Translations under genes and position numbers: made by a program
From: Candidatus Methanomethylophilaceae archaeon
Lineage (GTDB): Archaea; Thermoplasmatota; Thermoplasmata; Methanomassiliicoccales; Methanomethylophilaceae
DNA: 64,000 bases
Assembly: GCA_944320495.1 (NCBI GenBank)
Contig: CALUHR010000003.1
Location: forward strand, 1-64,000
Direction: 5' to 3'
Notes under the pieces: generated by a model
Seen by the model: the letters and a program-made list of their open reading frames with translations, nothing else
Database searches by the model: none
Told to the model about the DNA's origin: nothing
In this document: piece after piece, positions 7,921 to 62,165 of the stretch
Numbering within the stretch: the first letter of the stretch is position 1
Layout of the letters: the number at the start of each line of letters is the position of its first letter

Positions 7921-8916
7921 ATGAGCAATGCCACCCCCGTCCAAAATGGATTCTTATTTCAGGATTGCTCTGCTATTGTATTATTTTTTGATCACATCAA
8001 AGATGTCAAATCATTCAGGGTCGAAGGTCAAAAAGAAGATATTGAATTCGAGCTTAATGATGGGTCGTTTATATATTCACAATCAAAATACTGTTCGAAA
8101 GATCTCCAAAAAACCAAAGCCAAATCCATTTTTCAAGACGCACTGCGCACGCTATCTTTAGCTGATTCTGAAAAATGTAGCGGTCTTGTCTACACTACCA
8201 ATATCATCTTACCATTCGGTCCTAAAACACCGTCCGTAGATTTTGGTCACCATGATTATTGCATTGATTACTCAAATCTATCCCAGGACAGTAAAAACAT
8301 AATTGATTCGATAATTGAGACAAAGCAACTGCTTCTAGATCGCTCTAAATTATCTATCCGTATAATAGCCTTTCAAGAATCGGACCTCCAGCATACAAAT
8401 AGCGTTGTTTACCAAAACATCAATCGTTTCCTCAATAAATTGGGTAACAGATTTCGGTTTGATGAAGAGAAGATAATGTCTCTTTTTATGGATATTATCA
8501 GCTATAATAAGAATAACAGAGATTTATCTGCACAGATATCAAAACATAATATTATCTGGATTCTGATTGATTATCTAATGTCTACGGTTGATCCAGGTTT
8601 TGATCACTTAGATCCTGCCTTGAGATACGAAGTTGAATCGAAATATGAGGAACTTATCTCAATTTATGTTGAACGTATACAGTATACAACAGCAATATTG
8701 TACGATTACAAGGAGTGGTGTAAAGACCGCTCCATCACTGCTGAAACAGTACAGGATTTTGTTACGACAAACTGGAAACACTATTCTTCTGAATTTGATT
8801 CAGATACTATAGACTTTGAAACTTTGAAGGCCTTGACAATTATAATATTGTCAAAAATATTGACTCTGAGATATATAATTGAAGACATAAAGGGCGTGGC
8901 GGGAATTGTGGATTAA
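7921..8916 (+). CDS. Lamassu/ABC-3C-type effector with N-terminal Cap4-like PD-(D/E)xK nuclease (LmuA-like)
   Basis: NATPVQNGFLFQ...EGQKEDIE...SQSK N-terminus; overlaps the following SMC-like ATPase; very AT-rich. Confidence 0.6.
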   Translation: MSNATPVQNGFLFQDCSAIVLFFDHIKDVKSFRVEGQKEDIEFELNDGSFIYSQSKYCSKDLQKTKAKSIFQDALRTLSLADSEKCSGLVYTTNIILPFGPKTPSVDFGHHDYCIDYSNLSQDSKNIIDSIIETKQLLLDRSKLSIRIIAFQESDLQHTNSVVYQNINRFLNKLGNRFRFDEEKIMSLFMDIISYNKNNRDLSAQISKHNIIWILIDYLMSTVDPGFDHLDPALRYEVESKYEELISIYVERIQYTTAILYDYKEWCKDRSITAETVQDFVTTNWKHYSSEFDSDTIDFETLKALTIIILSKILTLRYIIEDIKGVAGIVD

Positions 8917-10405
8917 ACATATATGCATTGAAGAACCCCCAAACAAAAAGGAGTTTACATTTCACCCAGGCATTAATTTAATTCACAGTCACAATAACTC
9001 ATACGGCAAAACAACGTTGCTTCGTTTTATTTTATATGGACTTGGATTCACAATTCCAAACTTAGAAAAACTTCACATGGAACAATGTTTCGTCACTATA
9101 ACAGTTATTCATGGAGATAGAACAATTATCATCAATAGACATGAATCTGACATCTCTGTTGAGGAATTTAATGAAAAGACATACTATCGCACTCCACGCG
9201 AGTTGATGGCAGCAAGATCGAAAATCTTTAACTCCGATAACAAGCAACTTTTAGAGTCAATTCTTGGAGCCATGTATATAGACCAGGAACGTGGCTGGAC
9301 TCTACTTAATCGCGGAAAGGTAATAGGTTCAAATGAATTTCAGATTGAATCGTTCCTTAATTCAATAGCCAAGGACGATGTTGAATCTTTAATTATTGAA
9401 AAAAATAAACTCAGCAGAGAACTTGAGAGGTATAAACAACTACTTACGTTATCGGACAGACAGAGAACAATCGATGACTTTGATAAAAAAAGAATCAACC
9501 TTTCTGAAATTGAATCTGTACAGACATCTTTGGATTCTCTAAATATCCAATTGAGATCGTTAAAAAAAGAAGAAAAACGTATCAAAGAATCAATAAAGGA
9601 TAATAAAAAATTCATTGATTATATTGATCAAATGAAATTGGTTATAAAAGTTGGTGGCGAGATTATTCCATTGACCCATGACATGATCGTAACATGTCCA
9701 GATAATATGAGTTTCCTTGAAGCTCGTCTTGAAGTAACCCGGATGTCGATTTCTAAAATAACTGAAAAAATGATCAAGACTGAATCCGAATTAAACAAAT
9801 TATTGGATGAAAAAAAGTCTGATGAAATTATAGAAGCTTACTCTATAATACCAATTTCTAAAATCAATATCGATTCTGAAAAAATTCAATCTTCCATTAA
9901 CTTAATGAAAAACAGATTATCGATTTTAAATAAACAAATTGAATCAGCTCAAGATAAAACAAAAATTACAACTAAATTAGATTCACTAATATTGAGAAAT
10001 GCTGACGAACTTAATGTCTCACAATACATACAAAATGCTTCCAGACCTCTTTGCAAAATAGAAAAATTAAAAGGGTTCTCGGGTACAAAGTACAGAAAGG
10101 TCATACTTTCATATAGATTGGCTTATGCTTCATTGATTGAAGAAGTTGAAAAACTCACACTTCCACTAATAATAGACTCCCCTTCAGGTGAAGTGGATGA
10201 TACAAATCTCAGCGAAATGGTAAACATATTCCCCAAACTGTACTCCCATCATCAGGTCATCATTGCCTCGATAGATAGTCTCGACTCTCTTGAAAAAGAC
10301 ATGACCATTGAACTCAACACAGAAAACAAGCTGATTGATGTCCGGAAGGATGAAAATTTATTGGACGTTTTTTTAGATAAGACCGGCAACTATAAACCGG
10401 TCTAA
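8906..10405 (+). CDS. SMC/Rad50-like ABC ATPase (LmuB-like)
   Basis: Walker A NNSYGKTT, coiled-coil middle, FSG signature, Walker B LIIDSP; TTG start. Confidence 0.75.
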   Translation: MWIKHICIEEPPNKKEFTFHPGINLIHSHNNSYGKTTLLRFILYGLGFTIPNLEKLHMEQCFVTITVIHGDRTIIINRHESDISVEEFNEKTYYRTPRELMAARSKIFNSDNKQLLESILGAMYIDQERGWTLLNRGKVIGSNEFQIESFLNSIAKDDVESLIIEKNKLSRELERYKQLLTLSDRQRTIDDFDKKRINLSEIESVQTSLDSLNIQLRSLKKEEKRIKESIKDNKKFIDYIDQMKLVIKVGGEIIPLTHDMIVTCPDNMSFLEARLEVTRMSISKITEKMIKTESELNKLLDEKKSDEIIEAYSIIPISKINIDSEKIQSSINLMKNRLSILNKQIESAQDKTKITTKLDSLILRNADELNVSQYIQNASRPLCKIEKLKGFSGTKYRKVILSYRLAYASLIEEVEKLTLPLIIDSPSGEVDDTNLSEMVNIFPKLYSHHQVIIASIDSLDSLEKDMTIELNTENKLIDVRKDENLLDVFLDKTGNYKPV

Positions 10406-10419
10406 CACTTCTGTAGTCT

Positions 10420-10830
10420 GTGCAGAAAACTCCTGAACAGATCCATTACAATATGTCTCGTATCCGTTGCAAGGACACCAAAATTGAAGTGGAACTCAGA
10501 AAAGAGCTCTGGTCTCGTGGACTCCGTTATCGTAAGAATGTTAAAAACATCCCAGGTAAACCAGACATCGCATTCATTGGAAAGAAGATTGCCGTATTCT
10601 GTGACAGCGAATTCTGGCATGGTTACGATTGGGAACATCGTAAGAACGATATCAAAACCCGCAGAGAGTTCTGGATTCCCAAGATTGAGAAGAACATACA
10701 AAGAGATTTAGAAGTGAACCAGCTACTGGAAGAACAGGGTTGGATTGTCCTGAGATTCTGGGGAAAGGAAATCCAGAAGAATCTCTCAGGCTGCGCGGAT
10801 AGGATAGAAAAGGTGGTGAGAGAAAGATGA
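10420..10830 (+). CDS. vsr: Very short patch repair endonuclease
   Basis: MSRIRCKDTKIE, PGKPDI, FCDSEFWHG, FW.PKIEKN.QRD, GW.VLRFW. Confidence 0.92.
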   Translation: MQKTPEQIHYNMSRIRCKDTKIEVELRKELWSRGLRYRKNVKNIPGKPDIAFIGKKIAVFCDSEFWHGYDWEHRKNDIKTRREFWIPKIEKNIQRDLEVNQLLEEQGWIVLRFWGKEIQKNLSGCADRIEKVVRER

Positions 10831-11906
10831 CGGCCAAATTCAAGTCCATAGACCTCTTCGCAGGGATAGGCGGAATCCGCATGGGATTCGACAGAGCCTT
10901 CGGCGACGAAATCGAAACAGTCTTCGCCAGCGAATGGGATTCCTACGCGCAGCAAACCTACAAGGCCAACTTCGATACTCCCGAAGAGATCAACGGAGAC
11001 ATCACCAAGATCGACGAGAAGGACGTTCCCGACTTTGATATCTGTCTTGCTGGATTTCCCTGCCAGGCATTCTCCATCGCCGGAAAAAAACAGGGATTCA
11101 ACGATGATTACAAAGGAATGTCTCGCGGAACTTTGTTCTTCGACGTTGTAAGAATCTGCGATCTCCACAGACCCAAGGTAATTTTCTGTGAGAACGTCAA
11201 GGGTCTGACGATTCATGATAAGGGGAGAACCTTCGACGTGATCATCAACACTCTGAAGAATATGGGATACACGCCGCTTTATAAGGTTCTGAACAGCAAG
11301 GACTACGGTGTCCCTCAGAACAGGGAGCGTATCTACATCGTAGCTTTCAGGAATGACATAGACTGTTCTGGATTCCAGTTCCCTCAGCCCACCAACTCCA
11401 AGACATGCATCGCTGACATCATGGAAAAGGATCCGGTTTCGGTCAAATACTATCTGAGCGACGTGTATCTGGAGACCCTCAGAAAGCACAGAGCGAGACA
11501 CGAGGCTGCTGGCCATGGATTCGGGTATGAAATCAAAGATCTCGACGGAGTTTCCTCGGCTCTTGTCTGCGGAGGCATGGGACGGGAGAGAAACCTAGTT
11601 ATCGACGACCGCCTTACCGATTTTACCCCGATTACTCATATCAAAGGCAAAGTTAACCGCGAAGGCGTCAGGAAGATGACCCCTCGCGAATGGGCCAGAC
11701 TTCAGGGATTCCCCGACGACTTTAAACTTGTATTATCCGATACCCACCTCTACAAACAGTTCGGCAATTCGGTAACCGTCCCGGTAATCGAAGCCATTGC
11801 AAAAGAAGTCAGGAGGACTTTGGATGGGGATAACAAGGGGGAATTCGGGGGAGTGGTCGGAACCGTACGTTCTGCTCAGTCTGCTCTCCGAGGGTCGTAT
11901 ATATGA
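10827..11906 (+). CDS. dcm: DNA (cytosine-5) methyltransferase
   Basis: DLFAGIGG, AGFPCQAFS, ENVKGL, PQNRERIYIV, YKQFGNSV. Ends at 11891 if CGA is a stop. Confidence 0.95.
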   Translation: MTAKFKSIDLFAGIGGIRMGFDRAFGDEIETVFASEWDSYAQQTYKANFDTPEEINGDITKIDEKDVPDFDICLAGFPCQAFSIAGKKQGFNDDYKGMSRGTLFFDVVRICDLHRPKVIFCENVKGLTIHDKGRTFDVIINTLKNMGYTPLYKVLNSKDYGVPQNRERIYIVAFRNDIDCSGFQFPQPTNSKTCIADIMEKDPVSVKYYLSDVYLETLRKHRARHEAAGHGFGYEIKDLDGVSSALVCGGMGRERNLVIDDRLTDFTPITHIKGKVNREGVRKMTPREWARLQGFPDDFKLVLSDTHLYKQFGNSVTVPVIEAIAKEVRRTLDGDNKGEFGGVVGTVRSAQSALRGSYI

Positions 11907-13125
11907 TGCCGATGGGAATCTCAACATTATAAAGGAAGTATGGCATGACATAAGTTCGGTCATCTTCAAACAGGATTCCAAAGATAAAGTAGGTTCTCTC
12001 AGATATGATATCAATCTGGACAAGAAGACCGTTGATGTCTATCTGAACGGCAATCATCTGATACGCATTTCACGTGAAGAATGCAGAAAGTACGCAGAGG
12101 GGCTTCGCGATGCCATCAGAAACTCGCACAGCTCTAAAGGTACAATCGACATAGACCGTTCCTACTCGGATTACCTCAGATCCATAGGCCGTAATGCTCT
12201 AAAGGCCAGCAGCAAAGACACTCCCGACATCTGGCTGAATATGCCAGATGTCCGCAACACATCGAACAAACCCCTTGGATTCAGCATCAAATCCCGTTTG
12301 AGCAATCATCTGCCTACGATTTTCAACAGCAGCGGAGCATCAAACATCATCTATGAGATTACTGGAGACGTTACCGATGAGAAAATCTCCGAGCTGATGA
12401 AAATGGTAATCGCACACGGTTCGTCTGGTGAAGAACACGACCGCAAATTCGTCTATCCCAATTATCCGCTCCGCATCAAGACCTTCAAAGACATGGGTCT
12501 GGGTCTGAAATACCACAGTGCGGAATCATTAAAGACGGAAGACGACGGAGGCATACTGTTCAAAGGAACTGACCCGTTTGAGAAGAATCTCCTGATGATC
12601 GATTACTGCATGCCCCAGATACTGGCCGATATGACCGCGGAGGCCTACTTCAACGGTGTGATGAACATATCCGATCTCGTCAGAATTCTTGACGGTAAAG
12701 ACAGATTCGGCGTGAATCCATCCGAATCATACCCGTTCTACAAAAAGAAGGTTCAGGACATGCTGGTTGCGATGACCACATCCATGACCGCTGCAAAGAT
12801 ATGGGATGGCACCGAAGGTACCAACGGCGGTCTGATTATCGTGAAGGAGGACGGAGATATCGTTTGTTACCACATCTTCGATCGCAACGATTTCAGAGAG
12901 TTCCTGCTAAACAACATGAAATTCGAGTATCCGGACAATTCCAGATACTTCTCTACGGGAATCATCGAGAATCACGGGAAGTACTTTATGAGCCTGAACG
13001 TGCAGATCCGTATGGGCCAGAAAAAGAGGAAGGGCTCTTCCAGGCAGTCGGAAGGTTACTACGACATCGATGCGGGCAGGTATCTGGACAAGAGTCCGAT
13101 AGAGGAGAAGACCGTTTGGTTCTGA
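11824..13125 (+). CDS. Type II restriction endonuclease, HpaII-like family
   Basis: N-terminus GNSGEWSE.Y...L resembles the HpaII family; adjacent to a C5 MTase and vsr. Recognition site not determined. Confidence 0.7.
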   Translation: MGITRGNSGEWSEPYVLLSLLSEGRIYDADGNLNIIKEVWHDISSVIFKQDSKDKVGSLRYDINLDKKTVDVYLNGNHLIRISREECRKYAEGLRDAIRNSHSSKGTIDIDRSYSDYLRSIGRNALKASSKDTPDIWLNMPDVRNTSNKPLGFSIKSRLSNHLPTIFNSSGASNIIYEITGDVTDEKISELMKMVIAHGSSGEEHDRKFVYPNYPLRIKTFKDMGLGLKYHSAESLKTEDDGGILFKGTDPFEKNLLMIDYCMPQILADMTAEAYFNGVMNISDLVRILDGKDRFGVNPSESYPFYKKKVQDMLVAMTTSMTAAKIWDGTEGTNGGLIIVKEDGDIVCYHIFDRNDFREFLLNNMKFEYPDNSRYFSTGIIENHGKYFMSLNVQIRMGQKKRKGSSRQSEGYYDIDAGRYLDKSPIEEKTVWF

Positions 13126-13131
13126 CAGTCT

Positions 13132-13701
13132 ATGTCAAAATTTCCACAAACCGATAACAAACCCCTTCATTCAACCATCAGACACCAGTTGAAGGTCTCC
13201 AAACTCCACCGCATTACGAGAGAGGACATGGTTAAACTGGATTATTTTAGACGTCAGGTGTTCTCACTCGGAGAGAAACACCGTCAGTTATGGTCCAAGT
13301 ACAACTTCTTTAACATATCTGGGTACACTGATCCCAAGATATGCGAAAAGTACGGTACTCAGGCAGCATCAGAAATGTGTTGTTTGTATGAAGACTGGCT
13401 CGGACTCCGGAGAGAGATAGAACAATTCCTGGAACTGAAGGATCTCCCCATGACCTATGACGAACATGTATGGTCAAGACCGTATGTGGTCTCATCTTCT
13501 GGAACCATGAAGTACGACGGCACCTACGTGACAACGGGATTCGATTCGGGACCGGCAAAATGGTGCGAGATAACCCTGGATGGAATGACGAGCAAGATGC
13601 ATTCCCGTCGTCACCTCCAAAGGATTGAGCAGTATTCGATAGCTGGCTTTGCTACAGGTATTATCGGAATAGTGCTTTCGTTGGTGATGTTCTTTTACTG
13701 A
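13132..13701 (+). CDS. Hypothetical protein with C-terminal TM helix
   Basis: 189-aa ORF ending IAGFATGIIGIVLSLVMFFY. Confidence 0.6.
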   Translation: MSKFPQTDNKPLHSTIRHQLKVSKLHRITREDMVKLDYFRRQVFSLGEKHRQLWSKYNFFNISGYTDPKICEKYGTQAASEMCCLYEDWLGLRREIEQFLELKDLPMTYDEHVWSRPYVVSSSGTMKYDGTYVTTGFDSGPAKWCEITLDGMTSKMHSRRHLQRIEQYSIAGFATGIIGIVLSLVMFFY

Positions 13702-13706
13702 TTTCT

Positions 13707-14054
13707 TTAACGCTTCTCTTTTTCCAACTTCTCCGCACGGGCCTTCCTATCTTTGGCGTATTCCTCCTCGGCCATGCGAAGACGCTCTTCCGGATTAAGA
13801 TCCTGCTCCATCGCCTCTTCCATATGGTCTTCTTCATAGGATATCAAACGGTTACGGATGTCCTGAGATTCAAGATCGAACCCATAGTAAGAGCGAGTCC
13901 TCTTTCTAAGGATGACCTCCCCGTTATGCACATGCCACTCTACGATATCTTCGCCCTTTACCAACTCCAGCAGCTCGGCTATCTTGATACTACATGTGAT
14001 GCGCCCATAGTTGTCGTACTTGGATTCTCCGACTTTCACCATTTTAACCATCAT
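13707..14054 (-). CDS. AbrB/MazE-like DNA-binding regulator
   Basis: SKYDNYGRITCSIKIAELLEL.KGEDIVEW.V.NGEVILRK fits the swapped-hairpin fold; divergent from the integrase. Confidence 0.6.
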   Translation of the reverse strand: MMVKMVKVGESKYDNYGRITCSIKIAELLELVKGEDIVEWHVHNGEVILRKRTRSYYGFDLESQDIRNRLISYEEDHMEEAMEQDLNPEERLRMAEEEYAKDRKARAEKLEKEKR

Positions 14055-14130
14055 TGGCAACGTTGCCAAATAATTTAATATATGGTTGGCAATATTGGCA
14101 ATAATGAATCAAATTGCCGTAATTGCCAAT
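14054..14130. promoter_or_regulatory. Operator array (six TGGCAA/TTGCC half-sites) in a divergent promoter
   Basis: Palindrome TTGGCAACGTTGCCAA 14054-14069, tandem TTGGCAATA x2 14086-14103, two reverse copies, TATA-like TTAATATAT between them. Confidence 0.6.
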
Positions 14131-14355
14131 GAAGGTAGCACACACATTCCTGAGTCTGGAACCGCGCATCCAGATCACACATCCGACCTCTTCACAAGAA
14201 CCAACAGAGCCGCGCACATCAGTGCACTGGGCATCTTCCTGAGGAACTTCCCTCTAGAGGTGTTCGACGACAGCGAGAGATCCTGGTTCCTCGCATTCGA
14301 GTCCAGGGTCTGCAGAATGGAATCCGAGGCCTTCGACGACCTTGGACTGGAGTGA
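14104..14355 (+). CDS. Small ORF upstream of the integrase (possible excisionase/regulator)
   Basis: ORF whose TGA abuts the integrase GTG; no recognisable motif. Confidence 0.3.
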   Translation: MNQIAVIANEGSTHIPESGTAHPDHTSDLFTRTNRAAHISALGIFLRNFPLEVFDDSERSWFLAFESRVCRMESEAFDDLGLE

Positions 14356-15318
14356 GTGGCAACCATGGCAAAGGGCAACTACTCTGGAATATCTTGCATC
14401 AACGAGCACATTGCCAACACCTACAGGAGGTCGAAGGAAGAGACCTCCTCGAAGTACCGCGGAGTCCTCTACCAAATCAACGGCGATCTTCAGCAGAACG
14501 GATACTCCACCAACCCCCGCGAGTTCGATGAGGAAACAATCGAGTTCCTCTTGGGACTCTGGAAGGAGCGCGACCTCGCGGTGTCCACCAAGAACTGGTA
14601 CCTGCACATCCTGAGAAGATACCTCGCCTACTTCCAGAACGACGTTGTGGAGCAGATGGGCGTGGACTTCGGCCAGGACGTCCGCCCCAACGTCAACTGG
14701 CTCTCTGACGAGCAGGCCGAGCAGCTCATGGACATGGAGAAGACTCCTCTCGAGGAGGTCGTCATCCACCTGGAGCTCTGCCTCGGCCTCAGGATTGTGG
14801 AGGTATGCAGGCTGCGCCTCACTGACATCCACTTCGACGAAGACCCCCGCAAGTGCTATGTCTCCGTCCGCGGGAAAGGCAAGGGGGACGGCAAGTGGAG
14901 AAGCATCCCGTTCCACCCAGACTCCAAGGAGGTCTTTAGGCGCTGGATTGCCAGACGCAACGAGATCATCGCCAGGATGCACGAGTTCGACCCCTCGTGG
15001 AAGGTTCCCGATGAATTCCTGATCTGGTGCCACTACGACAACCGCCCCTCCGCTGGACGCTATACCGAGAGAGGTCACAGCCTCGACCGCGCAGTTATCC
15101 ACAAGGTCCGCGACCGTGCCGGATTCGAGTTCTCCAATCACACTCTCAGGAGGACATTCGGCCGCACGCTCTACCGTGCCGGCATCCCGATCGAGACGAT
15201 TTCCAAGCTCTACGGCCATGATGACGTCAAGACAACCATCCGTTACCTCGGGATTGACCTCGACGACATGGGCTCCGCCCTTGCCAGAATGTACGAGTAC
15301 CAGTACTCCAGGAGATGA
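14356..15318 (+). CDS. Tyrosine recombinase/integrase (XerA-like)
   Basis: CLGLRIVEV (R), GKG (K), HTLRRTFGR (HxxR), LYGH...TTIRYL (H, Y). Confidence 0.95.
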   Translation: MATMAKGNYSGISCINEHIANTYRRSKEETSSKYRGVLYQINGDLQQNGYSTNPREFDEETIEFLLGLWKERDLAVSTKNWYLHILRRYLAYFQNDVVEQMGVDFGQDVRPNVNWLSDEQAEQLMDMEKTPLEEVVIHLELCLGLRIVEVCRLRLTDIHFDEDPRKCYVSVRGKGKGDGKWRSIPFHPDSKEVFRRWIARRNEIIARMHEFDPSWKVPDEFLIWCHYDNRPSAGRYTERGHSLDRAVIHKVRDRAGFEFSNHTLRRTFGRTLYRAGIPIETISKLYGHDDVKTTIRYLGIDLDDMGSALARMYEYQYSRR

Positions 15319-15351
15319 TCAGGTGACCCCCTCAAACACGGTCCCCGAACC

Positions 15352-15374
15352 CAAATCAGGGAGTGGGGACCATC
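15352..15374 (+). repeat. attR core
   Basis: Identical to 6329-6351; lies within the inverted repeat GGTCCCC...GGGGACC (15340-15371). Confidence 0.9.
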
Positions 15375-15550
15375 ACTTCCGAAACGCTGCCGGCCCGATG
15401 GTATGGAAATCCTGTACCAAGCCCGGCTTTGATCGGCCATACACCTTTCATCGATTCCCTGCAGATGCCTGAAGCAGACTACCTCTGGCATGCTCGTATG
15501 AGTAGCCTCGAAACATTTTTCTCCGATGCGCGGGAACCGCCCGCGAGAGC

Positions 15551-16750
15551 ATGACCCCGAGACAATGGCTTCCTCTGATCGCGATAGTCATATGCGTATT
15601 CATCGTGAACATGTCGGAGTTCATGCCGATCGGTCTTCTGACCGACATCGCGACCGATTTCGACATCTCGGAGTCCAAGGCGGGTCTGCTCATATCGTTC
15701 TACGCCTGGGCGGTGGCGATCCTCTCACTTCCGATCATGCTTCTACTCCGCAAGATGGAGTACCGCAGGATGTTCCTGATGACCATAGCCCTCTTCGCGT
15801 TCTTCCAGATCCTGTCGGGGATCAGCAGCAGCTACGGGATGCTCATGGCCTCCCGCATCGGTGTCGCCGTCGCTCACTCGATCTTCTGGTCCATAGCCAC
15901 CCCGCTCGCGGTCCGCGTCGTGCCTCCAGAGCTGCAGAAGCTCGCGCTCAGTGCGGTGGCGACCGGTACGTCCGTGGCCATGATCGCCGGACTCCCCCTG
16001 GGGAGGATCATCGGCCTGGCGCTCGGCTGGAGGATGACTTTCATCGTCATCGCCGTGGTCTCGATCGTCGCGCTGGTGCTGCTGATCTTCGTCTTCCCCA
16101 GGCTGGAGAACCCCGGGACCTTCACCCTCAGACGCCTCCCCGGCCTCCTGAGCAACAGGGTGCTCATCGGGATCTACGTTATGCTCGCCATCTACGTCAC
16201 CGGCTACTACACCGGATACAGCTACATCGAGCCCTTCCTGCAGCAGATCGCCGGATTCTCCGAGACGATGACCACCGTCGCGCTGACCGTGTTCGGAGCG
16301 TTCGGGATCGTGGGCAGCATCCTGTTCACCAAGTTCTATGACAGGACCAGGTTCAGGTTCATGATCATGGCCCTGCTCGGGGCGGCGGTCTGCCTCCTTC
16401 TCCTGAGACCGTCCGTCGTCTCGATGCTCCTCGTATTGGCGGTATGCGCCTTCTGGGGGCTCTTCGCCACATGCTTCAACGTGGCATTCCAGAACGAGAC
16501 GCTCCGCGCGTCGCCCGAGGACGGGACCGCGATTTCGATGTCGTTGTTCAGCGGCATATTCAATGTCGGGATCGCCAGCGGTTCGCTCATCGGAGGATGG
16601 GTCACAGACTCCTCCGCCGGCGTGGGTTCCATCGGATTCGTCGGAGCTGCCTTCGTGATCGTGGCGGCGGCCATAACCGCATTCTATCTGATCAGGAAGA
16701 TGAGGATCGCCGACGGGGAACGCGCGAAGCGGCTGGCAGAGATCCGCTGA
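15551..16750 (+). CDS. MFS transporter (SotB/NepI-like efflux)
   Basis: SEFMPIGLL..IA.DF N-terminus, about 12 hydrophobic segments. Confidence 0.9.
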   Translation: MTPRQWLPLIAIVICVFIVNMSEFMPIGLLTDIATDFDISESKAGLLISFYAWAVAILSLPIMLLLRKMEYRRMFLMTIALFAFFQILSGISSSYGMLMASRIGVAVAHSIFWSIATPLAVRVVPPELQKLALSAVATGTSVAMIAGLPLGRIIGLALGWRMTFIVIAVVSIVALVLLIFVFPRLENPGTFTLRRLPGLLSNRVLIGIYVMLAIYVTGYYTGYSYIEPFLQQIAGFSETMTTVALTVFGAFGIVGSILFTKFYDRTRFRFMIMALLGAAVCLLLLRPSVVSMLLVLAVCAFWGLFATCFNVAFQNETLRASPEDGTAISMSLFSGIFNVGIASGSLIGGWVTDSSAGVGSIGFVGAAFVIVAAAITAFYLIRKMRIADGERAKRLAEIR

Positions 16751-34525: not shown

Positions 34526-34971
34526 TCGGCAACCCCAGCAACAAGGCGATCAGGAACGCCAAGAAGGCGCTGGAGTCCCTGGACCTCAACTACGAGGACC
34601 GCGACGGCACCATCGTGCTGAGCGCCATGGGGGACGACCTGCCCATCGGCATGGTCATCATCGCCGACGACGGCAACATGACCCTGAACATCTACTGCTA
34701 CCTGATGTTCGACTTCGGGTCGGAGGCCAGGATGAAGCTCATCCCCGAGCTGAACACGCTGAACAACACCATAAACAACGGCGGGTTCTACATGTCGGAC
34801 GACGAGAACAAGATCTACTTCAAGATCGTCCAGAGCTTCTACGACCAGGTCCCCTCGGACGAGACCATCGCCCACCTGATCAAGGTGGCGTTCAAGACCG
34901 TCGACGTCAACGACGGCAAGCTGAAGGACCTCATCCCGAAGGACGCGATGAAGGACCTGATGTACTCGTGA
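34522..34971 (+). CDS. YbjN-like (sensory transduction regulator) domain protein
   Basis: 149 aa with a LN..N......GGFY pattern; ATGA overlap with gltA. Confidence 0.6.
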   Translation: MIGNPSNKAIRNAKKALESLDLNYEDRDGTIVLSAMGDDLPIGMVIIADDGNMTLNIYCYLMFDFGSEARMKLIPELNTLNNTINNGGFYMSDDENKIYFKIVQSFYDQVPSDETIAHLIKVAFKTVDVNDGKLKDLIPKDAMKDLMYS

Positions 34972-35874
34972 TCGCCTTCCGGCGACCATCCTCTCCACCG
35001 GCCTGCGGGCACCGGCGACGACCTCGTCCGGGAGCTCGACGGCCGGTCCCATCTTCTCCAGGCACTCCAGCACGCCCTCGGGGGTTGCCATCTTCATGGC
35101 CCCGCACACGGCGGACTCGGGGAACCACCACACCCTTCCGGGGACCTCCTTATCGAGCCTGTGCCTCATGCCGACCTCGGTGAGCACGATGAACTCCCTC
35201 GACTCGGACTGGCGGCAGTGGCCGATCATGCCCTCGGTGGAACCGATGAAGTCGGCCATCGCGAGGACCGGCGCCCTGCACTCGGGGTGGGCGAGGACCT
35301 CCGCGCCGGGATGCTCGCGCCTGAGCGCCTCCACCTGGCCGACCGATATGGATTGGTGGATGGGGCAGAACCCGTGCCAGAGCTCGATGTCCTTGGATGG
35401 GTTCTTGGATGCGGCGTAGGAGCCGAGGTTCCTGTCGGGAACGAAGAGGACCTTGTCGGAGGACAGTCCCGAGACGACCTTGACGGCGTTGGACGACGTG
35501 CAGCACACGTCCATCTCCGCCTTGCACGCGGCCGTCGAGTTGACATAGCCGACGACCTCGCACCCGGGGTTGCGAGCACGAGCCTCGCGGATCTGCTCCG
35601 GGGTGCACATCTGCGCCATGGAGCACACCGCATCCGGATCGGGGATCAGCACGGTCTTGCCCGGATTGAGGATCTTGGCGGTCTCGGCCATGAAGGACAC
35701 GCCGCAGAACACGATGACATCGGCGTCCGTCTCGGACGCCGCTATGGAGAGGCCGAGGGAATCCCCGACCTTGTCGGCGATGTCCTGCACCTCTGGCAGG
35801 CAGTAGTTGTGCGCCAGGATGATGGCGTTGCGTTCGCACTTGAGCTCGGCTATCCTCTCCGAGACGTCGACCAT
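34972..35874 (-). CDS. nadA: Quinolinate synthase; proposed CGA stop
   Basis: ILAHNY, GDSLGLS, VFCGVSFMAET, CSMA, YVNSTA, CTSSNA, CPIH, HPEC, C..MK. CGA after ERMVAGR gives 300 aa; standard code gives a junk extension to 34465. Confidence 0.92.
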
Positions 35875-48797: not shown

Positions 48798-50186
48798 TCA
48801 GTGCTTGATGTCGAGACCGGCGTCCCTGAGGGTGGCGACGGCCTTGTCGTAGATGTCCAGGTACTCCTGGGTCGGCTTGACGGTCTTGACGTCGTAGCAC
48901 TCCTGGAAGGTCTTGCCGGCCGGAGCGTCGGTGAAGTGGGCCTCGTAGGCGGGCACGATCTTGTTCAGGATCTCGTTGACGTCGGAGATCTTCATTCCGC
49001 AGGTGGCCACGGCGGCGTTGCCCATGATCCTGGCCTCCATTCCGGTGGTCTTGTCCTGGACGACTCCCTTGGCGGCGGCGGATCCGGAGAGGAGCTCCCT
49101 TCCGGAGGCGGTGTCGGTGATCGCCTGGGCGGCGGTCTCCAGCAGGCACATCTCGGTGCAGGGTCCTGCCATCGGGTAGTACTGGTTGGCCAGGAGCAGG
49201 TCGGTGTTGGCGTCGACGGCTGCGGCTGCCCAAGCGGCGACCTGGAGGGTCTCTCTCGCAGTGGTGACTCCCCACCTGATGTGGATGGGTCCGTCCAGGT
49301 GGAAGTTTCCGCTGAAGCAGGCGAAGGATCCGAGGGTGGTGGCGACGTCGCAGATGGCGGTCTCCTCGACGCCTCCGGTGTATCCACCGAAGATGGGCAT
49401 CTGCTCGATCATGATCATGTCGCCGACGGTGGTCCATCCGGCCAGCATGTTCAGTCCGGTCATGTCGATCTTCAGCTCGTTGAGCTGGGAGCACTCGTGC
49501 GCGTCGGTGATCCTGTGTCCCGCGTTGGGGAGATCGGCGCAGAGACGTCCGGCCTCGGACAGAGGCGTCTCGGGTCCCTAAACACCCATGCCGGGCCTGG
49601 CTGCCCTAACACGGGCCTCCTTGACGGCCCTGAGCTCGGCCATGGTCGCACGGATCTCGTAGGGGGTCTTGGTCTTAGCCGGGTGGCCCTCGATCGTGGT
49701 CATGACTCCGTTGACGAGGGTGTCGACGACTCCCTCCTGGGCGTAGGACTGCATGACCTGCACGAAGACGTCCTCGGAGATCGGGGATCCGGTGGGTCCT
49801 CCCTGGATGATCGGCTTGACGTTGCTGTTGCCGTGCCTGGGGTAGAACCTGGCGATGTCTTTTCCCTCTCCGTAGATCATCTTGGTCGGGGTCTTCTTGA
49901 TTCCCTCCCAGACCTCCTCCTCGGTGACGTGCATGACACGGCCGAGGTCCTGGTTGTAGTAACCGACGGTGACCAGCATCTCAAGTCCGGCCTGGAAGAG
50001 CCTGTTGACCATGTCCTTGTCCTCGGGGACGATCTCCTTCGGGTCGAACTTGATGTTGTACTTCTCTTTGAGAGCGGTGAGGTTCTCGGGGGTGATCTTG
50101 TAGTCCCAGTCCTCCACCTTGACTTTCTTTCCCTTCACGAACCTGTCGTAGACGTCGGGGATGGTGAGTGCCCTTGTTGCTGCCAT
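48798..50186 (-). CDS. mtmB: Monomethylamine methyltransferase MtmB (Pyl at codon 203)
   Basis: QGGPTGSPISE, then RPGMGV-TAG(49578-80)-GPETPLS, then HECSQLNELKID, NQYYPMAGPCTEMCL. Two ORF-track pieces join in frame, 462 aa. Confidence 0.97.
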
Positions 50187-55342: not shown

Positions 55343-56080
55343 ATGGACACAGAGGAGATTCTCAGGAACCTATAGGATTCGGTCGTGAAGCTCGACGTGG
55401 ACGGCTGCCGCAGATACGCGGAGATCGCCATGGACTCCGGCATGCCTCCAGAGGAGGCCATTGAGAGGGGACTCGCACGTGGCATGGACCGCATCAGCGA
55501 CATGTTCGACGAGGGCACCGCCTATCTCCCCCAGATCCTGATGGCATCGAAGGCCATGGACGCCGCCCTGGACGTCATCATCCCGCATATCGAGAGGCAG
55601 GGGTCCTGTCTCCGCGGGATAGTCGTCATGGGATCCGTCAAGGGCGACATCCACTCCATCGGCAAGAACGTGTGCTGCGCCATGCTCCGCGGCGCCGGAT
55701 TCAAGGTCGTCGACCTCGGAACGGACGTGGATCCGGACAAGTTCGTCAAGGCCGTCGAGAAGCATCATCCGAACGTGGTCGGCGCCTCGGCACTCATGAC
55801 CGTCAGCCTCCCCCAGCAGAGGCAGCTGGTGCGCATCTTCAGGGAGAACGGCATATCCGTTCTCACCATCTTCGGCGGCGCCCCCTGTAGCCAGGAGTGG
55901 GTCGATGAGATCGGAGGGGACGGGTACTCCGACTCAGGCGCGAGCATCGTCAGGCTCGTGCGCTCGCTCCTTGGCATCGACGTCCAGGTCGGATCCGGCC
56001 AAAAGGATTATATCGGAATTGACCGGGATGGGGAGCCAGATGACGGCCAAACGCTATGTCGACATTTTCGAGGCATATGA
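55343..56080 (+). CDS. mtmC: Second methylamine corrinoid protein, with in-frame TAG at codon 11
   Basis: GGGGGAG RBS, ATG 55343, MDTEEILRNL-TAG-DSVVKLD aligns with MtmC1 MSKEEILADL-K-KSVETWD; GDIHSIGKN motif. Ends at 56062 if CGA is a stop. Confidence 0.85.
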
Positions 56081-57419
56081 CCGGTTCTTCAAGGGGGAGC
56101 GCGTCACCGAGAACGACTGGGACTACAACATAGTCCCGAAGGCGGCGGCCGACATCAAGGAGAAGTTCAAGATCTCGTTCGGAAGGGACATCATCCCCAC
56201 CGATGAGGACCTGTGCGAGAGACTGTTCCTCGCAGGCATCGACATGCTCCTCACCACCGGGTTCTACAACACCGATCTGAAGAGGGTCATGAGGATCGAC
56301 GAGGACGAGCTCTTCGAGGGACTCAAGATGGCGCCGACGAAGCTGCAGCTCGGCTCCGGCAAGGACCAGCGCGAGTGCCAGGCCCGCCGCGGCAACGCCC
56401 GTCGCAAGCCCATCATCCAGGGTGGCCCTACCGGGGCGCCCGTGTCGGAGGCGAGCTTCGTCCCCATGATCCGCTCTTACGCCCAGGAGCCCGTCGTAGA
56501 CACGATAGTCAGCGGGGTCCTGAGCACCATCAACAACCATCCGGCGACCACCAACACGCCCTGGGAGATCCGCGCCACGATGGCCGAGACCAGGTACGTG
56601 AGGGAGGCATGCCTGATGGCCCAGCGCCCAGGCATGTGCATCTAGGGGCCCCAGACCCCCCTCTCCGCCGCGGGGAGGCTGGCGTCGGACCTCACGCAGC
56701 ACGGCCTCAAGCCCTACGACGCCCACGAGTGCTCCCAGCTGAACGAGCTGAAGATCGACATGTCCGCCCTGAACATGATGGCGGGCTGGCAGGCCGTGGG
56801 GGACATCGTCATGATGGAGCAGATGCCCATCTTCGGAGGCTACGTCGGAGGCGTGGAGGAGACCGCGATCTGCGACGTGGCGACAATGATCGCATCGTTC
56901 GCGATATTCGACTGCGACATCCACCTGGACGGCCCGATCCACATCAGATGGGGGACCACGACCACCCGCGAGACGCTGAAGATCGCCGCGCACGCCGCGG
57001 CCGCTCTGGACCAGAACACCGATTTCCTGCTGGCCAACCAGTACTACACGATGGCCGGGCCCTGCACGGACATGTGCCTGCTGGAGATCGCCGCCCAGGC
57101 GATGACCGACACCGCCTCCGGCAGGGAGCTCCTCTCCGGCGTGGCGTCGTCCAAGGGAGTCAGCCGCGACAGGACCACGGGCATGGAGGCCAGGTTCATG
57201 GGGGAGGTCTCGCTCGCGACCTGCGGGATGAGCATAGAGGACGTCAACAGCACGATCGACAACGTCCTGAAGCTCTACGAGAAGGACTTCGCGAAGGCGC
57301 CCCAGGGAAAGACGTTCCAGGAGTGCTACGACGTCACCACGATGGAGCCCAGCGACGAGTATGTGGAGCTCTACGACAGGATGGTGGACGTCCTCGGTAC
57401 CTGCGGGATGGACTTCCGA
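56040..57419 (+). CDS. mtmB: Second MtmB (Pyl at codon 202); proposed CGA stop
   Basis: RPGMCI-TAG(56643-45)-GPQTPLS. Collinear with mtmB1 to GMDF, then CGA 57417-19, giving 459 aa; standard code runs to 57908. Confidence 0.93.
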
Positions 57420-57758
57420 TCGCTCCTTGTTCTCCTCGGACACCAGGTTGAGGCCGGCCACCCCGGCGACGATCATGAAGAGGCAGATCCAGCCGACCCA
57501 GTTCAGACCCTCGTCCATCCAGATCATGCCCACCACGACGGCCCCCACGGCGCCGATGGCCGTCCATACCGCGTAGCACGGGCCTGTCGGGAGACCGTGC
57601 CTGAATCCGAGGTTGAGCAGGTACATGCTGATGCCCAGGAAGATCATCATGGGGATCATCCAGAGAGGCTCGGAGAACCCGTCTGTGAACTTCAGGCATG
57701 TCGCCCATGCGGTCTCCGCGACGCCTCCTGCGAGGACGTAGAGCCATCCCCTGTTCAC
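57420..57758 (-). CDS. SMR family transporter (SugE/Gdx-like); proposed CGA stop
   Basis: GTG start overlapping the upstream TGA; W..L.GG.AE.AWA..LK..DGF, YAVWTAIG, four TMs; CGA gives 112 aa. Confidence 0.85.
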
Positions 57759-58897: not shown

Positions 58898-60850
58898 ATG
58901 TCTCAACCTTCAGGAGGACCCGTCGCCGAGGGCGGCGGACGCGTCCTCAGGGTGGCCCTCGTGGGCCAGCCCAACGTGGGCAAATCCTCGCTCTTCACCC
59001 GCCTGACCGGCGTGGGCGTGATATCCTCGAACTACCCCGGCACCACGGTGACGTTCGAGGAGGGCGCCATCACCAGGAACGGCTCCACAGTCAGCGTCCG
59101 CGACCTGCCCGGCACCTTCGGCATATCCGGGAACTCGGACGACGAGAGGGTCGTCATCAGGAACCTGAGGGAGCAGGGGTTCGACTGCATCATACTGGTG
59201 GCCGATGCCACCGGCCTGTCCGGGAGCCTTGTGCTGTGCGAGGAAGCCCTCGAGCTGGGGCTCCCGACCATCGTGGCGCTCAACAAGATGGACGAGGCCC
59301 GCAAGAGGCTGTCCATCGACAGCTCGAAGCTGGAGGAGGCCCTCGGCGTGCCGGTAATTCCGGTGTCCTCGAAGACCTCCGAGGGCGTCGACGAGCTCGC
59401 TGACGCGGTATGCGCCGGGAAGGCGAGGCTCCCCAAGTCCGACATGCGCTTCGACGACGGGATCGAGGCGGCCATCGCAGGGATAACTGAAGCCCTGCCG
59501 GACGGCATGCCATTCTCCAAGCGGGGCGTGGCCATCAAGATCCTCGAGCACTCGCCCGAGTTCGACCCCCTGGCCGACGACGACACCCGCCGTTCAGCCG
59601 GCCTCATGCGCCGCGTGTACTCGGAGCGCGAGGGCAGGTCCATGGCGGTGTCCATCGCCACCGAGAGGTACTCGTGGGCGGAGAAGGTCGTGTCGTCCTG
59701 TGTCGAGAAGGACGAGAGCAGGCTGTCCCTTGCCGACAGGATATCGGACATCACAATCACGCCGATCACCGGCCTGCCGATCCTCGTGCTGATATGCCTC
59801 GGCATACTCACGGTGATCGTCTACGCCGGCTCGTTCCTCGACGGGGTGGTGAACGGTGTCTACAGCTCCGTCATCGGGAGCGCTCTCATCGACTTCGGCC
59901 GCTCCATCGGAGGGGACTTCGGCGAGGCCGTGTTCACCGGGATCGACGGGAGCTTCCAGGCGATGCTGGCGCTCGTCATCCCCTACATCCTCGTCTTCTA
60001 CATCATCCTGGGCATCCTGGAGGATTCCGGATACCTGACCAGAGCGGTCGTGCTCCTGGACAACATAATGCACCACTTCGGTCTCCACGGAGGCTCTTTC
60101 ATCCCCATGATCGTCGGCATCGGGTGCAACGTGCCGGCCATCCTGGCGGTGCGCACGGTCAAGTCCCGCAGGGAGAAGATCATCCTCTCCTCTATAATCA
60201 TCATGGCCGTCCCCTGCTCGGCGCAGCTGGCCATAATCATGGGCGCCACAGGGTCCTACGCCGGGGTGCTCTATGCGTTCGGCATCCTCGTGATGCTCGT
60301 CTGCCTCGGCATGGCGGTCGGCGTCCTCATGAACAGGTTCCTGAGATACGAGCCAAGCGACCTCGCCATGGAGCTGCCCCCGCTGCAGATGCCCACGGTC
60401 AAGAACATCCTGTTCAAGACCTGGCACAGGATCAAGGACTTCCTCTACATCGCGTTCCCCCTGCTCGTGGTGGGCTCCATCGTGGTGGAGATCCTCATCT
60501 CATACGATCTGCTCGGGGCCATCGTCGATCCGCTCTCGCCCATCACCGTCGGCATCCTGGGACTTCCGGCCGTCTGCACCATAGCGTTCATCGTCGGCAT
60601 CCTGAGGAAGGAGATGGCCGTAGGGATGCTCTCGGTACTGGCAGGAGGGGTCGCCCTGGAGGAGTTCATGACGCCGGACCAGTTCGTGGTGTTCGGAGTG
60701 GTGATGGCGGTGTACATGCCGTGCCTCGCCACCCTCCTGACGATGTGGCGCGAGATCGGGTGGAAGGAGACCATCTGCGTGAGCGTCCTGTCCATAGCGG
60801 TGGCCATCGCCCTCGGAGGGGCGGCCAACCTGCTGCTCCAGCTGTTCCGA
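58898..60850 (+). CDS. feoB: Ferrous iron transporter B; proposed CGA stop
   Basis: GQPNVGKS, NYPGTTV, DLPG, NKMD, G.GCNVPA, MELPP, Y.PC.ATL. Last TM ends LLQLF followed by CGA CGA (650 aa). Confidence 0.93.
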
Positions 60851-60902
60851 CGACGCCTCCGGAGGAACCAAGCATATTATCGGATGATGCCATCCAGCGC
60901 TC

Positions 60903-62165
60903 ATGACAGTCAAAGAATCGGTGACATCCGACGCCCTCGTGGTGGATGCGCCAACGTGCAGGGACGACTGCTCCGCCACCAGGGTCCTGCTGCAGGACCA
61001 GGCCAGGACCGTCGTCTTCCAGGACCTCGACGGCGGCAGGGCCGTGGGCAACAGGTTCTCCACCAGGGAGAAGATGGCCGCGGCGCTGAACATCCCCAAG
61101 GACGGCATCGTCAACCACATCCTCGAGGCGGTCAACCACCCGATCCCCTGCGAGGTCGTCGACGACCCGGAGTTCGCCGCATGCGAGCTGCCCCTGGACC
61201 TCACCGCCCTGCCCATCCCCAAGTACTTCCCGGAGGACGGCGGCAGGTACGTGACCTCGGGAATCGTGGTCACCGAGTTCGAGGGCTACAGGAACGTCTC
61301 CTTCCACAGGATGATGATCATGGACGAGAGGCACATCGCCATCAGGCTGGTGCCCCGCCACCTGTTCACCATCCACCGCATGGCGAAGGAGAAGGGACAG
61401 GAGCTCGGGATCACCATCTGCATCGGCGCACAGGCCGAGGTGCTGCTCGCCGCCGCGACGTCGATGGACTTCGGCGCCGACGAGCTCGAGGTCGCCTCCG
61501 CGATGCACAAGGCCGGACACGGCACCCCGCTCAGGGTCGGACGCTGCGCCAACGGCCTCCTCGTGCCCGCCGACACCGACTACGTGATCGAGGGGAGGAT
61601 AACACTCGAGGAGACCAAAGAGGGTCCGTTCGTGGACATCACCGGCACCTACGACTTCGAGAGGCAGCAGCCGGTCATCGAGGTCGACAGGATCACCTCG
61701 TGCAAGGATCCGATGATGCACCTCCTCCTGCCCGGAGGATGGGAGCACTACCTCCTCATGGGACTCCCCAGGGAGCCCATGATCCTCAAGGCCGTGAGGC
61801 AGGCCGTGCCCGGCGTGAGGAACGTCAGGCTCACCGAGGGCGGATGCTGCTGGCTTAACGGAGTGGTCTCGATCAGGAGGAACAAGGCGGGCGACGGGGT
61901 CAACGCCGGCATGGCCGCCCTGTCAGGTCACACATCCATGAAGCAGGTCATCGTCGTGGACGAGGACATCGACATCTTCGACGACCGCGAGGTCGAATGG
62001 GCGGTCGCCACCAGGATGCAGGCGGACCGCATCGTGAAGATCCCCGGAGCCGCCGGATCCTCGCTGGACCCCAGCTCCCACGGGGGGACGACCTGGAAGG
62101 TCATAATCGACGCGACGATCCCGCCCGAGGCGGACCTGTCGCTTTACAAGAAGGCAACGCTCTGA
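60903..62165 (+). CDS. UbiD family (prFMN-dependent) decarboxylase
   Basis: DLTALPIP....EDGG.Y, NVSFHRM, EGPFVD.TG.YD, VVDEDID, IDAT.P. Confidence 0.9.
   Translation: MTVKESVTSDALVVDAPTCRDDCSATRVLLQDQARTVVFQDLDGGRAVGNRFSTREKMAAALNIPKDGIVNHILEAVNHPIPCEVVDDPEFAACELPLDLTALPIPKYFPEDGGRYVTSGIVVTEFEGYRNVSFHRMMIMDERHIAIRLVPRHLFTIHRMAKEKGQELGITICIGAQAEVLLAAATSMDFGADELEVASAMHKAGHGTPLRVGRCANGLLVPADTDYVIEGRITLEETKEGPFVDITGTYDFERQQPVIEVDRITSCKDPMMHLLLPGGWEHYLLMGLPREPMILKAVRQAVPGVRNVRLTEGGCCWLNGVVSIRRNKAGDGVNAGMAALSGHTSMKQVIVVDEDIDIFDDREVEWAVATRMQADRIVKIPGAAGSSLDPSSHGGTTWKVIIDATIPPEADLSLYKKATL

Follow-up and report, generated by a model that had tools for sequence, protein, structure and literature searches.

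CGA as a probable stop codon at a convergent gene junction and genome-wide in an archaeon of the genus Candidatus Methanoprimaticola

The DNA described here is a stretch of 64,000 nucleotides (the window; contig C3, positions 1–64000) from the genome of a chicken-gut archaeon of the genus Candidatus Methanoprimaticola, family Methanomethylophilaceae. The genome, designated G000, comprises 1.77 Mb in 14 contigs with a G+C content of 61.6%. Positions 57411–57430 of the window read GAC TTC CGA TCG CTC CTT G. Two convergent genes, mtmB2 for a monomethylamine methyltransferase and SMR2 for a small multidrug resistance (SMR) protein, were claimed in the original prediction to reach a CGA codon each at this point, and the window sequence confirms this. 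The two codons lie back to back with zero gap in the palindrome CGATCG (Table 1). The standard code instead gives an open reading frame (ORF) of 718 amino acids (aa) across the locus. The evidence given below suggests that CGA is used as a stop codon both here and at many other gene ends.

The mtmB2 gene contains an in-frame TAG codon (pyrrolysine) at 56643–56645, and its last residue before CGA is Phe459 (57414–57416). The Pfam model of MtmB is covered at positions 1–195 and 197–450 of 450 (E values of 3.8e-83 and 8e-132), with the TAG between the two halves, and the match stops two residues short of the CGA codon. In the same frame, the next standard stop is a TAG located 163 codons further on. 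On the opposite strand, SMR2 matches positions 2–93 of the 93 positions of its Pfam model (E = 4.6e-21). Its last sense codon is GAG (57425–57423), the protein ends with SEENKE, and the frame is free of standard stops for 490 codons past the CGA codon, so that the tail would be antisense to the entire mtmB2 gene. No Pfam family was matched by the tails beyond either CGA codon, the MtmB and SMR models being complete before them, and there is no further in-frame CGA inside mtmB2 or SMR2.

Genuine genes are easy to tell in G000 because the third codon positions are ~92% G+C (GC3 of ~0.92) and the second positions are ~40%. A codon log-odds score trained on 542 clear G000 genes decreases at the mtmB2 CGA codon from +0.66 upstream to −0.32 downstream, and at the SMR2 CGA codon from +0.78 to −0.28.

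Table 1. Features at the junction and related features. Coordinates are those of the window unless a contig is given.
Feature	Coordinates	Strand	Basis or remark
mtmB2, monomethylamine methyltransferase	56040..57416	+	ATG at 56040, 459 codons, PF05369
CGA ending mtmB2 (putative stop), T at +4	57417..57419	+	TGA in orthologues, coding-score drop
CGA (complement of TCG) ending SMR2 (putative stop)	57420..57422	-	G009 orthologue length, coding-score drop
Palindrome CGATCG, two stop-like CGA back to back, zero gap	57417..57422	.	window sequence
SMR2, small multidrug resistance protein, 112 aa	57423..57758	-	PF00893
SMR1, paired SMR protein, 110 aa	57755..58087	-	PF00893, E = 3.7e-19
mtmB1, paralogue with in-frame TAG and ordinary TGA stop	48798..50186	-	tblastn, translation
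feoB, 650 codons, tandem CGA CGA at 60848-60853	58898..60853	+	FeoB_N, Gate and FeoB_C Pfam domains complete
aRF1, single copy	G000:C2:85936-87165 (L013:937-2166)	-	only aRF1 gene found
tRNA-Arg(UCG)	G000:C13:413317-413390 (L181:1509-1582)		A31-A39 mismatch, UUUCGGC loop

The junction was compared with those of related genomes, labelled G008, G009, G010, G013 (Candidatus Methanoprimaticola sp. MG2), and G018. The mtmB2–SMR arrangement is kept in three species of the same genus. Alignment of the orthologous junctions, which had been proposed as a check of the original prediction, placed a TGA at exactly the mtmB2 CGA codon in G009, G013, and G010; their mtmB2 ends with GLDM-TGA compared with GMDF-CGA in G000. 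The SMR orthologue of G009 ends with NLVSDDPEA followed by TGA, and this protein is equal in length to SMR2. The description of the palindrome as TGATCA with both T changed to C captures its form and not necessarily its ancestry: in relatives, the two facing stops lie 2 to about 30 bases apart (TGAGTTCA, TGAGCTCA).

Within G000, the paralogue mtmB1 (61% identical to mtmB2) serves as an internal control for the continued use of TGA. The mtmB2 CGA codon had been placed at the same position as the mtmB1 end, which is slightly off, as mtmB1 (GLDIKH followed by TGA) is two codons longer. The GTG start of SMR2 at 57758 overlaps the ordinary TGA of SMR1 (57757–57755) as GTGA, and the two adjacent genes form a pair of the paired-type SMR family. 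Upstream of mtmB2, a corrinoid protein gene (window 55343–56080; ORF 55385–56080) extends 40 bases into mtmB2, and two CGA codons are present among the last eight codons of this ORF.

Nearly all database homologues of the MtmB half that follows the TAG codon have a length of 216–252 aa. They match the read-through ORF (382 aa) over its first 57% only and therefore end at the residue of the mtmB2 CGA codon. A read-through form of MtmB was also found elsewhere, in a cluster of 41 members sharing ≥90% identity, drawn from NCBI, ENA, and Logan assemblies with contigs as long as 805 kb. Nine members of this cluster were aligned as protein sequences, and each of them reads GMDF-R-S; the cluster of a second species, which is more distant, has GLGL-R-G at the stop position. 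The Arg codon at the stop position is thus fixed in natural populations. A conserved amino acid sequence in the tail had been named as evidence that would speak against termination at CGA. Compared with a 93%-identical strain, the MtmB domain shows 99.1% identity and the tail 84%. As judged from these sequences, the mtmB2 tail is not conserved as a protein, and the SMR gene on the opposite strand accounts for the similarity that is left.

Logan contigs of a chicken-gut metagenome (run X1), which may itself be the source sample of the assembly, are identical to the window over 57029–57620 and 60711–60912. These read-derived contigs, together with the nine cluster variants showing Arg at the mtmB2 stop, bear out the view that two independent assembly errors are unlikely. 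Two other DNA runs (X3 and X5) and one RNA run (X15) extend across the junction or the end of feoB with a few differences and are uninformative for positions 57417 and 57422. JGI metagenome contigs were scanned for an exact match to the junction pattern, and none was found.

The same codon is found at gene ends throughout G000. Among confident gene ends, we counted 157 CGA, 690 TGA, 17 TAA, and 6 TAG, which corresponds to a CGA share of ~18%; a looser count gave 171 CGA and 747 TGA. The window contains 7 CGA, 28 TGA, and 1 TAA ends. TGA thus remains the main stop, and a global loss of TGA was rejected. We scanned all in-frame CGA codons preceded by 40 coding-like codons; 86 of them had long flanks, and non-coding-like sequence followed in 86% of these, compared with 2–8% for ten other, mostly rare codons (among them CGG, CGT, AGA, TCA, CAA, CTA, TGT, ACA, and GGT). 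In-frame CGA occurs at ~0.9 per 1000 codons and is mostly terminal, with only about four clearly internal cases in the genome, compared with 35 per 1000 out of frame. The out-of-frame occurrences are close to expectation (observed/expected ratios of 0.93 for NCG|A and 0.97 for NNC|GA, the latter with 14,587 cases). The constraint on CGA is thus aware of the reading frame, and it therefore appears to act at decoding rather than through a sequence-directed process.

Comparisons between species gave a similar picture. At least 11 genes that end with CGA in G000 have TGA in the G008, G013, or G018 orthologue. CGA ends are common to G000 and G018 in eight genes and to G000 and G013 in three genes, and one gene has TGA in G018 and CGA in G000. 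This mixture of common and differing ends shows a turnover between the two codons. Substitutions between species at codon positions 1, 2, and 3 number 66, 60, and 178 upstream of CGA and 141, 68, and 51 downstream in the same frame, and frame-breaking indels are commoner downstream than upstream. Stop-start overlaps of the form CGATG are present at 44 of the 157 CGA ends, compared with TGATG at 54 of the 690 TGA ends. The frame downstream of the overlap is coding-like in 18 of these 44 cases, and its translation opens like a protein N-terminus.

Another example, next to the junction, is feoB, which ends with LLLQLF followed by tandem CGA codons, after which the frame is stop-free for 336 codons. 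The feoB gene of G013 likewise reads TTC CGA CGA, with a TGA three codons later. One contig of run X1 has a joint that skips 60844–61025 (short side of 21 letters). A homologue of Pelota (aDom34; G000:C1:21757-22086 and G018:C86:4935-5264) lies in open frames of 858 aa in G000 and 777 aa in G018, compared with ~350 aa in other relatives, and probably ends on CGA in both genomes.

The context of the terminal CGA codons differs from that of TGA. The base at the +4 position is T after 65% of terminal CGA and after 31% of TGA, and the bias is also present in G018 and G013. A backup stop or a further CGA lies within five codons of 46% of CGA ends and 22% of TGA ends, and codon adaptation is lower in genes ending with CGA (0.53 compared with 0.62). 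We infer that CGA is a weaker, leaky stop that is best tolerated in a favorable context and in less highly expressed genes. Convergent junctions with zero gap are rich in CGA because T is favored at +4 after CGA: the genome contains 11 YGATCR junctions of this type (four CGATCG, six mixed, and one TGATCA). One mixed junction, TGATCG, is at 34969–34974 in the window and joins a TGA end to a convergent CGA end; this CGA is kept in G018, and G013 has a TGA two codons later.

The share of CGA among gene ends varies within the genus. It is 2 of 120 in G008 (53% G+C), both with a standard stop immediately after, 17 of 163 in G013 (59% G+C; 17 CGA and 146 TGA in 400 kb), and 15 of 130 in G018 (63% G+C), compared with ~18% in G000. 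The increase with G+C content fits a T-to-C drift at stop codons once CGA has become acceptable as a stop.

The gene for tRNA-Arg(UCG), the tRNA that reads CGA, was found in 17 genomes of the genus, including G000; loss of this tRNA, considered as a possible cause, was rejected for this reason. A covariance model was used in the search and recovered the G008-type copy, which had been missed by BLAST and by a loop pattern. The anticodon arm is abnormal across the genus. The G000-type tRNA has a mismatch at positions 31–39 (A-A, C-A, or U-C) with G37, and the G008-type tRNA has C33 in a CCUCGAC loop. The copy of G000 itself combines A31-A39 with a UUUCGGC loop, whereas in the rest of the genus either a CUUCGGA loop is combined with a 31–39 mismatch or the loop is CCUCGAC with C33. 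In two outgroup genera, the tRNA is canonical, with a five-pair stem and a CUUCGAA loop.

The release factor aRF1 is encoded by a single gene in G000, in which no second aRF1 paralogue specialized for CGA was found. We compared it with aRF1 from 25 relatives of the order and then from 80 more of the family (105 genes). A Gly-to-Ser substitution at residue 28 (G28S; GRSTE instead of GRGTE in the GRGTELIS region) is the sole change at an otherwise invariant column among the relatives compared. It is present only in G000 and G018, whose aRF1 proteins are identical. Residue 28 aligns with Gly31 in the GTS loop of human eRF1. The GTS loop modulates stop-codon selectivity, and its backbone has been proposed to contact the second base (G2) of UGA (PMC3384315; PMC3632111). 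The NIKS and YRCDSxF motifs of aRF1 are unaltered. The Arg at the position equivalent to Leu123 of yeast eRF1, within YRCDSxF, was considered as a lineage marker and rejected, as it is conserved across the whole order.

The aRF1 gene itself contains a single in-frame CGA, at the conserved Arg78 and followed by C at +4. In 43 of 44 distinct genes of the genus, Arg78 is encoded by CGA, despite synonymous variation in 208 of 227 columns with invariant residues, and AGG, CGC, or AGA serve at the remaining Arg columns. In other genera of the family, a CGA codon in aRF1 tends to lie at Arg25 instead.

Our preferred interpretation, to which we assign a probability of about 0.78, is that CGA is read mainly as a translation stop beside TGA, and that mtmB2 and SMR2 both terminate within CGATCG. 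The long read-through ORFs of the standard code would then be artefacts, which forms part of the same interpretation. A more detailed proposal also seems likely, although we hold it less firmly. According to this, CGA would be a genuine fourth stop codon, read by aRF1 with the help of G28S, dependent on U at +4 and opposed by an attenuated tRNA-Arg(UCG), with aRF1 tuning itself; this would be the first sense-to-stop reassignment outside organelles. The single aRF1 may recognize CGA as a look-alike of UGA, with the best recognition when U is at +4, and would have to compete with the retained tRNA and its abnormal anticodon arm. Under strong G+C pressure, TGA stops would drift to CGA where this is tolerated, and termination at CGA would be leaky. 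The in-frame CGA of aRF1, located in the weak context of C at +4, would probably serve as a feedback sensor of aRF1 activity, by analogy with the UGA codon of bacterial prfB.

Several points weigh against this interpretation. The tRNA-Arg(UCG) gene is retained in G000. The NIKS motif, which is the reader of the first stop base in eRF1, is unaltered, and CGA ends occur in G013 without G28S, so the substitution is not required; G28S may enhance the trait but cannot be its origin. The strong T bias at +4 also counts on this side. The gene ends were called with a home-made codon score rather than a validated gene finder, and the support for CGA as a stop is comparative and statistical throughout. 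In addition, a few in-frame CGA codons are located at conserved Arg residues (Arg78 of aRF1, the Asn-Pro-Arg motif of carB in G018, and a flavodoxin-like gene), which means that reading of CGA as Arg still occurs in at least some cases.

Three individual cases of internal-looking CGA are worth describing. In G018 (L059 = G018:C86, minus strand, near 17769), the in-frame CGA codes for the Arg that is conserved in motif EVNPRVSRSSALASK of carbamoyl-phosphate synthase, which indicates either Arg reading at some sites or an impaired gene. In the flavodoxin-like gene of G000 (contig C8, plus strand, CGA at 55685; GKTI-R-PFCTNEGSG), the coding signal continues past CGA. On contig C13 of G000 (minus strand), the CGA at 194145 immediately precedes a HAD-phosphatase-like start (AVFIDRDDTV) that lacks a nearby start codon; this may be a two-domain junction with read-through.

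Other explanations of the junction were weighed. CGA could be a starved, effectively unassigned codon at which ribosomes stall and are rescued by aRF1 acting independently of the codon or by aPelota/ABCE1. The aberrant anticodon arm of tRNA-Arg(UCG) across the genus and the near absence of CGA in the lower-GC G008 are consistent with this, the backup stops and tandem CGA codons would suit a weak signal, and a rescue reading has been proposed in the yeast work on CGA (PMC7379694). However, routine stalling at ~18% of genes would be costly, and these include the CGATG overlaps, which resemble normal termination-reinitiation sites. Rescue of the Pelota type proceeds without hydrolysis of peptidyl-tRNA, and the substitution in the GTS loop, within the codon-reading domain of aRF1, goes with the highest use of CGA; for these reasons we consider stalling and rescue unlikely. 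It is still less likely that the code is standard and that C-to-U editing converts genomic CGA into UGA in the mRNA. Editing of CGA to UGA that creates stops is established in plant organelles, and the strong CGA-T context could be the recognition motif of an editing enzyme, but we know of no mRNA editing in archaea. The avoidance of CGA is strictly frame-specific, with NCG|A and NNC|GA at expectation, whereas an enzyme acting on CGA or CGAT would mis-edit thousands of sites, the edits at NCG|A being missense. The conserved CGA of aRF1, the lineage-specific change in its GTS loop, and the altered anticodon arms of the tRNA point to decoding instead.

A true loss of stops from both genes, as nonstop mutants or pseudogenes with translated long tails, would agree with the continuation of the standard-code ORFs for 163 and 490 codons and with the read-through ORF called in many assemblies. 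We regard it as highly improbable, because the two genes are intact in all other respects and their Pfam models are complete, each tail is antisense to the coding region of the other gene, the tail changes much more quickly than the domain (84% and 99% identity), and the pattern recurs at ~160 genes with CGA every time and no other codon. An error of sequencing, base calling, or assembly at a palindromic, possibly methylated TGATCA is the most remote of the alternatives. Symmetric errors are possible at methylated palindromes, and the two changes are indeed symmetric on both strands. In contrast, the contigs derived from the reads of run X1 are identical across the junction, the nine checked variants and the second species carry Arg at the stop position, and CGA ends also occur in the separate assemblies of G018 and G013. 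TGATCA occurs in the genome about as often as expected (614 observed and 584 expected), so there is no systematic conversion of this site, and CGATCG is not enriched; restriction avoidance and methylation-linked miscalling at TGATCA were rejected as well.

The interpretation of CGA as a stop can be compared with known systems. The nearest established cases are changes from sense to stop in organelles: AGA and AGG in vertebrate mitochondria (NCBI table 2), UCA in Scenedesmus (table 22), UUA in Thraustochytrium (table 23), and further cases in green-algal mitochondria (PMC6821328; PMC12574857). As in these codes, the sense codon in G000 is nearly gone from gene interiors and stands where genes end, instead of a standard stop. 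The organelle codes belong to tiny genomes with a handful of genes, and the cognate tRNA is usually lost, whereas G000 is a cellular genome of the free-living type (~1.8 Mb) in which the tRNA is kept, TGA is the main stop, and the change is partial (~18%).

In yeast, eRF1/eRF3 detectably decode a single terminal CGA as a stop in competition with tRNA-Arg, and UGA-biased eRF1 variants do so better (Wada and Ito 2018, PMC7379694), which makes the chemistry plausible. The yeast effect is low-level misreading of CGA in reporters and not a signal used by genes, in contrast to G000, where natural genes appear to rely on CGA. The aRF1 gene resembles that of bacterial RF2 (prfB, with an in-frame UGA) in keeping one in-frame codon that its own product would read as a stop, conserved against synonymous drift. 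The prfB gene requires a +1 frameshift, whereas aRF1 would need only reading by tRNA-Arg, with CGA at a conserved Arg, and its regulation in this manner is putative.

In two archaeal assemblies from hydrothermal vents, CGA is absent from recognizable domains, and a stop meaning was raised; according to the authors, their method cannot infer stops, the CGA question was left open, and no evidence from gene ends was given (bioRxiv 10.64898/2026.04.02.715157). These archaea belong to a different lineage, tRNA-UCG was not found in them, and CGG is reassigned to Trp. Condylostoma and Blastocrithidia use context-dependent or ambiguous stop codes (PMC4967479). As proposed for G000, context decides between two meanings of one codon, and a release factor acts against a tRNA, but the change in these eukaryotes is from stop to sense, and that in the archaeon would be from sense to stop. 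In Blastocrithidia, both a change in an anticodon stem and a mutation in eRF1 play a part.

We found no paper in the literature in which a change from sense to stop is established for a cellular genome, and the papers that mention Methanoprimaticola do not address the genetic code. If true, CGA in G000 would be the first such code change outside organelles, in an archaeal genus of animal and human guts, and no NCBI table exists for a code of this kind. Public annotations would then be wrong for ~1 in 5–10 genes, with fused, over-long proteins and false antisense overlaps, and code-inference tools that are unable to call stops miss such changes. The lineage would be a living "ambiguous intermediate", in which the tRNA persists in altered form, the release factor has changed, and the usage of stops follows the G+C content. 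Relatives in the family supply PylRS/tRNA-Pyl pairs for synthetic biology (PMC9630628), and the termination rules of the family matter for the reuse of these parts.

Elsewhere in the window, positions 8001–16000 form an island of low G+C content (0.395 at 8–12 kb and 0.52 at 12–16 kb, compared with 0.61 for the genome), which may be foreign or mobile DNA.

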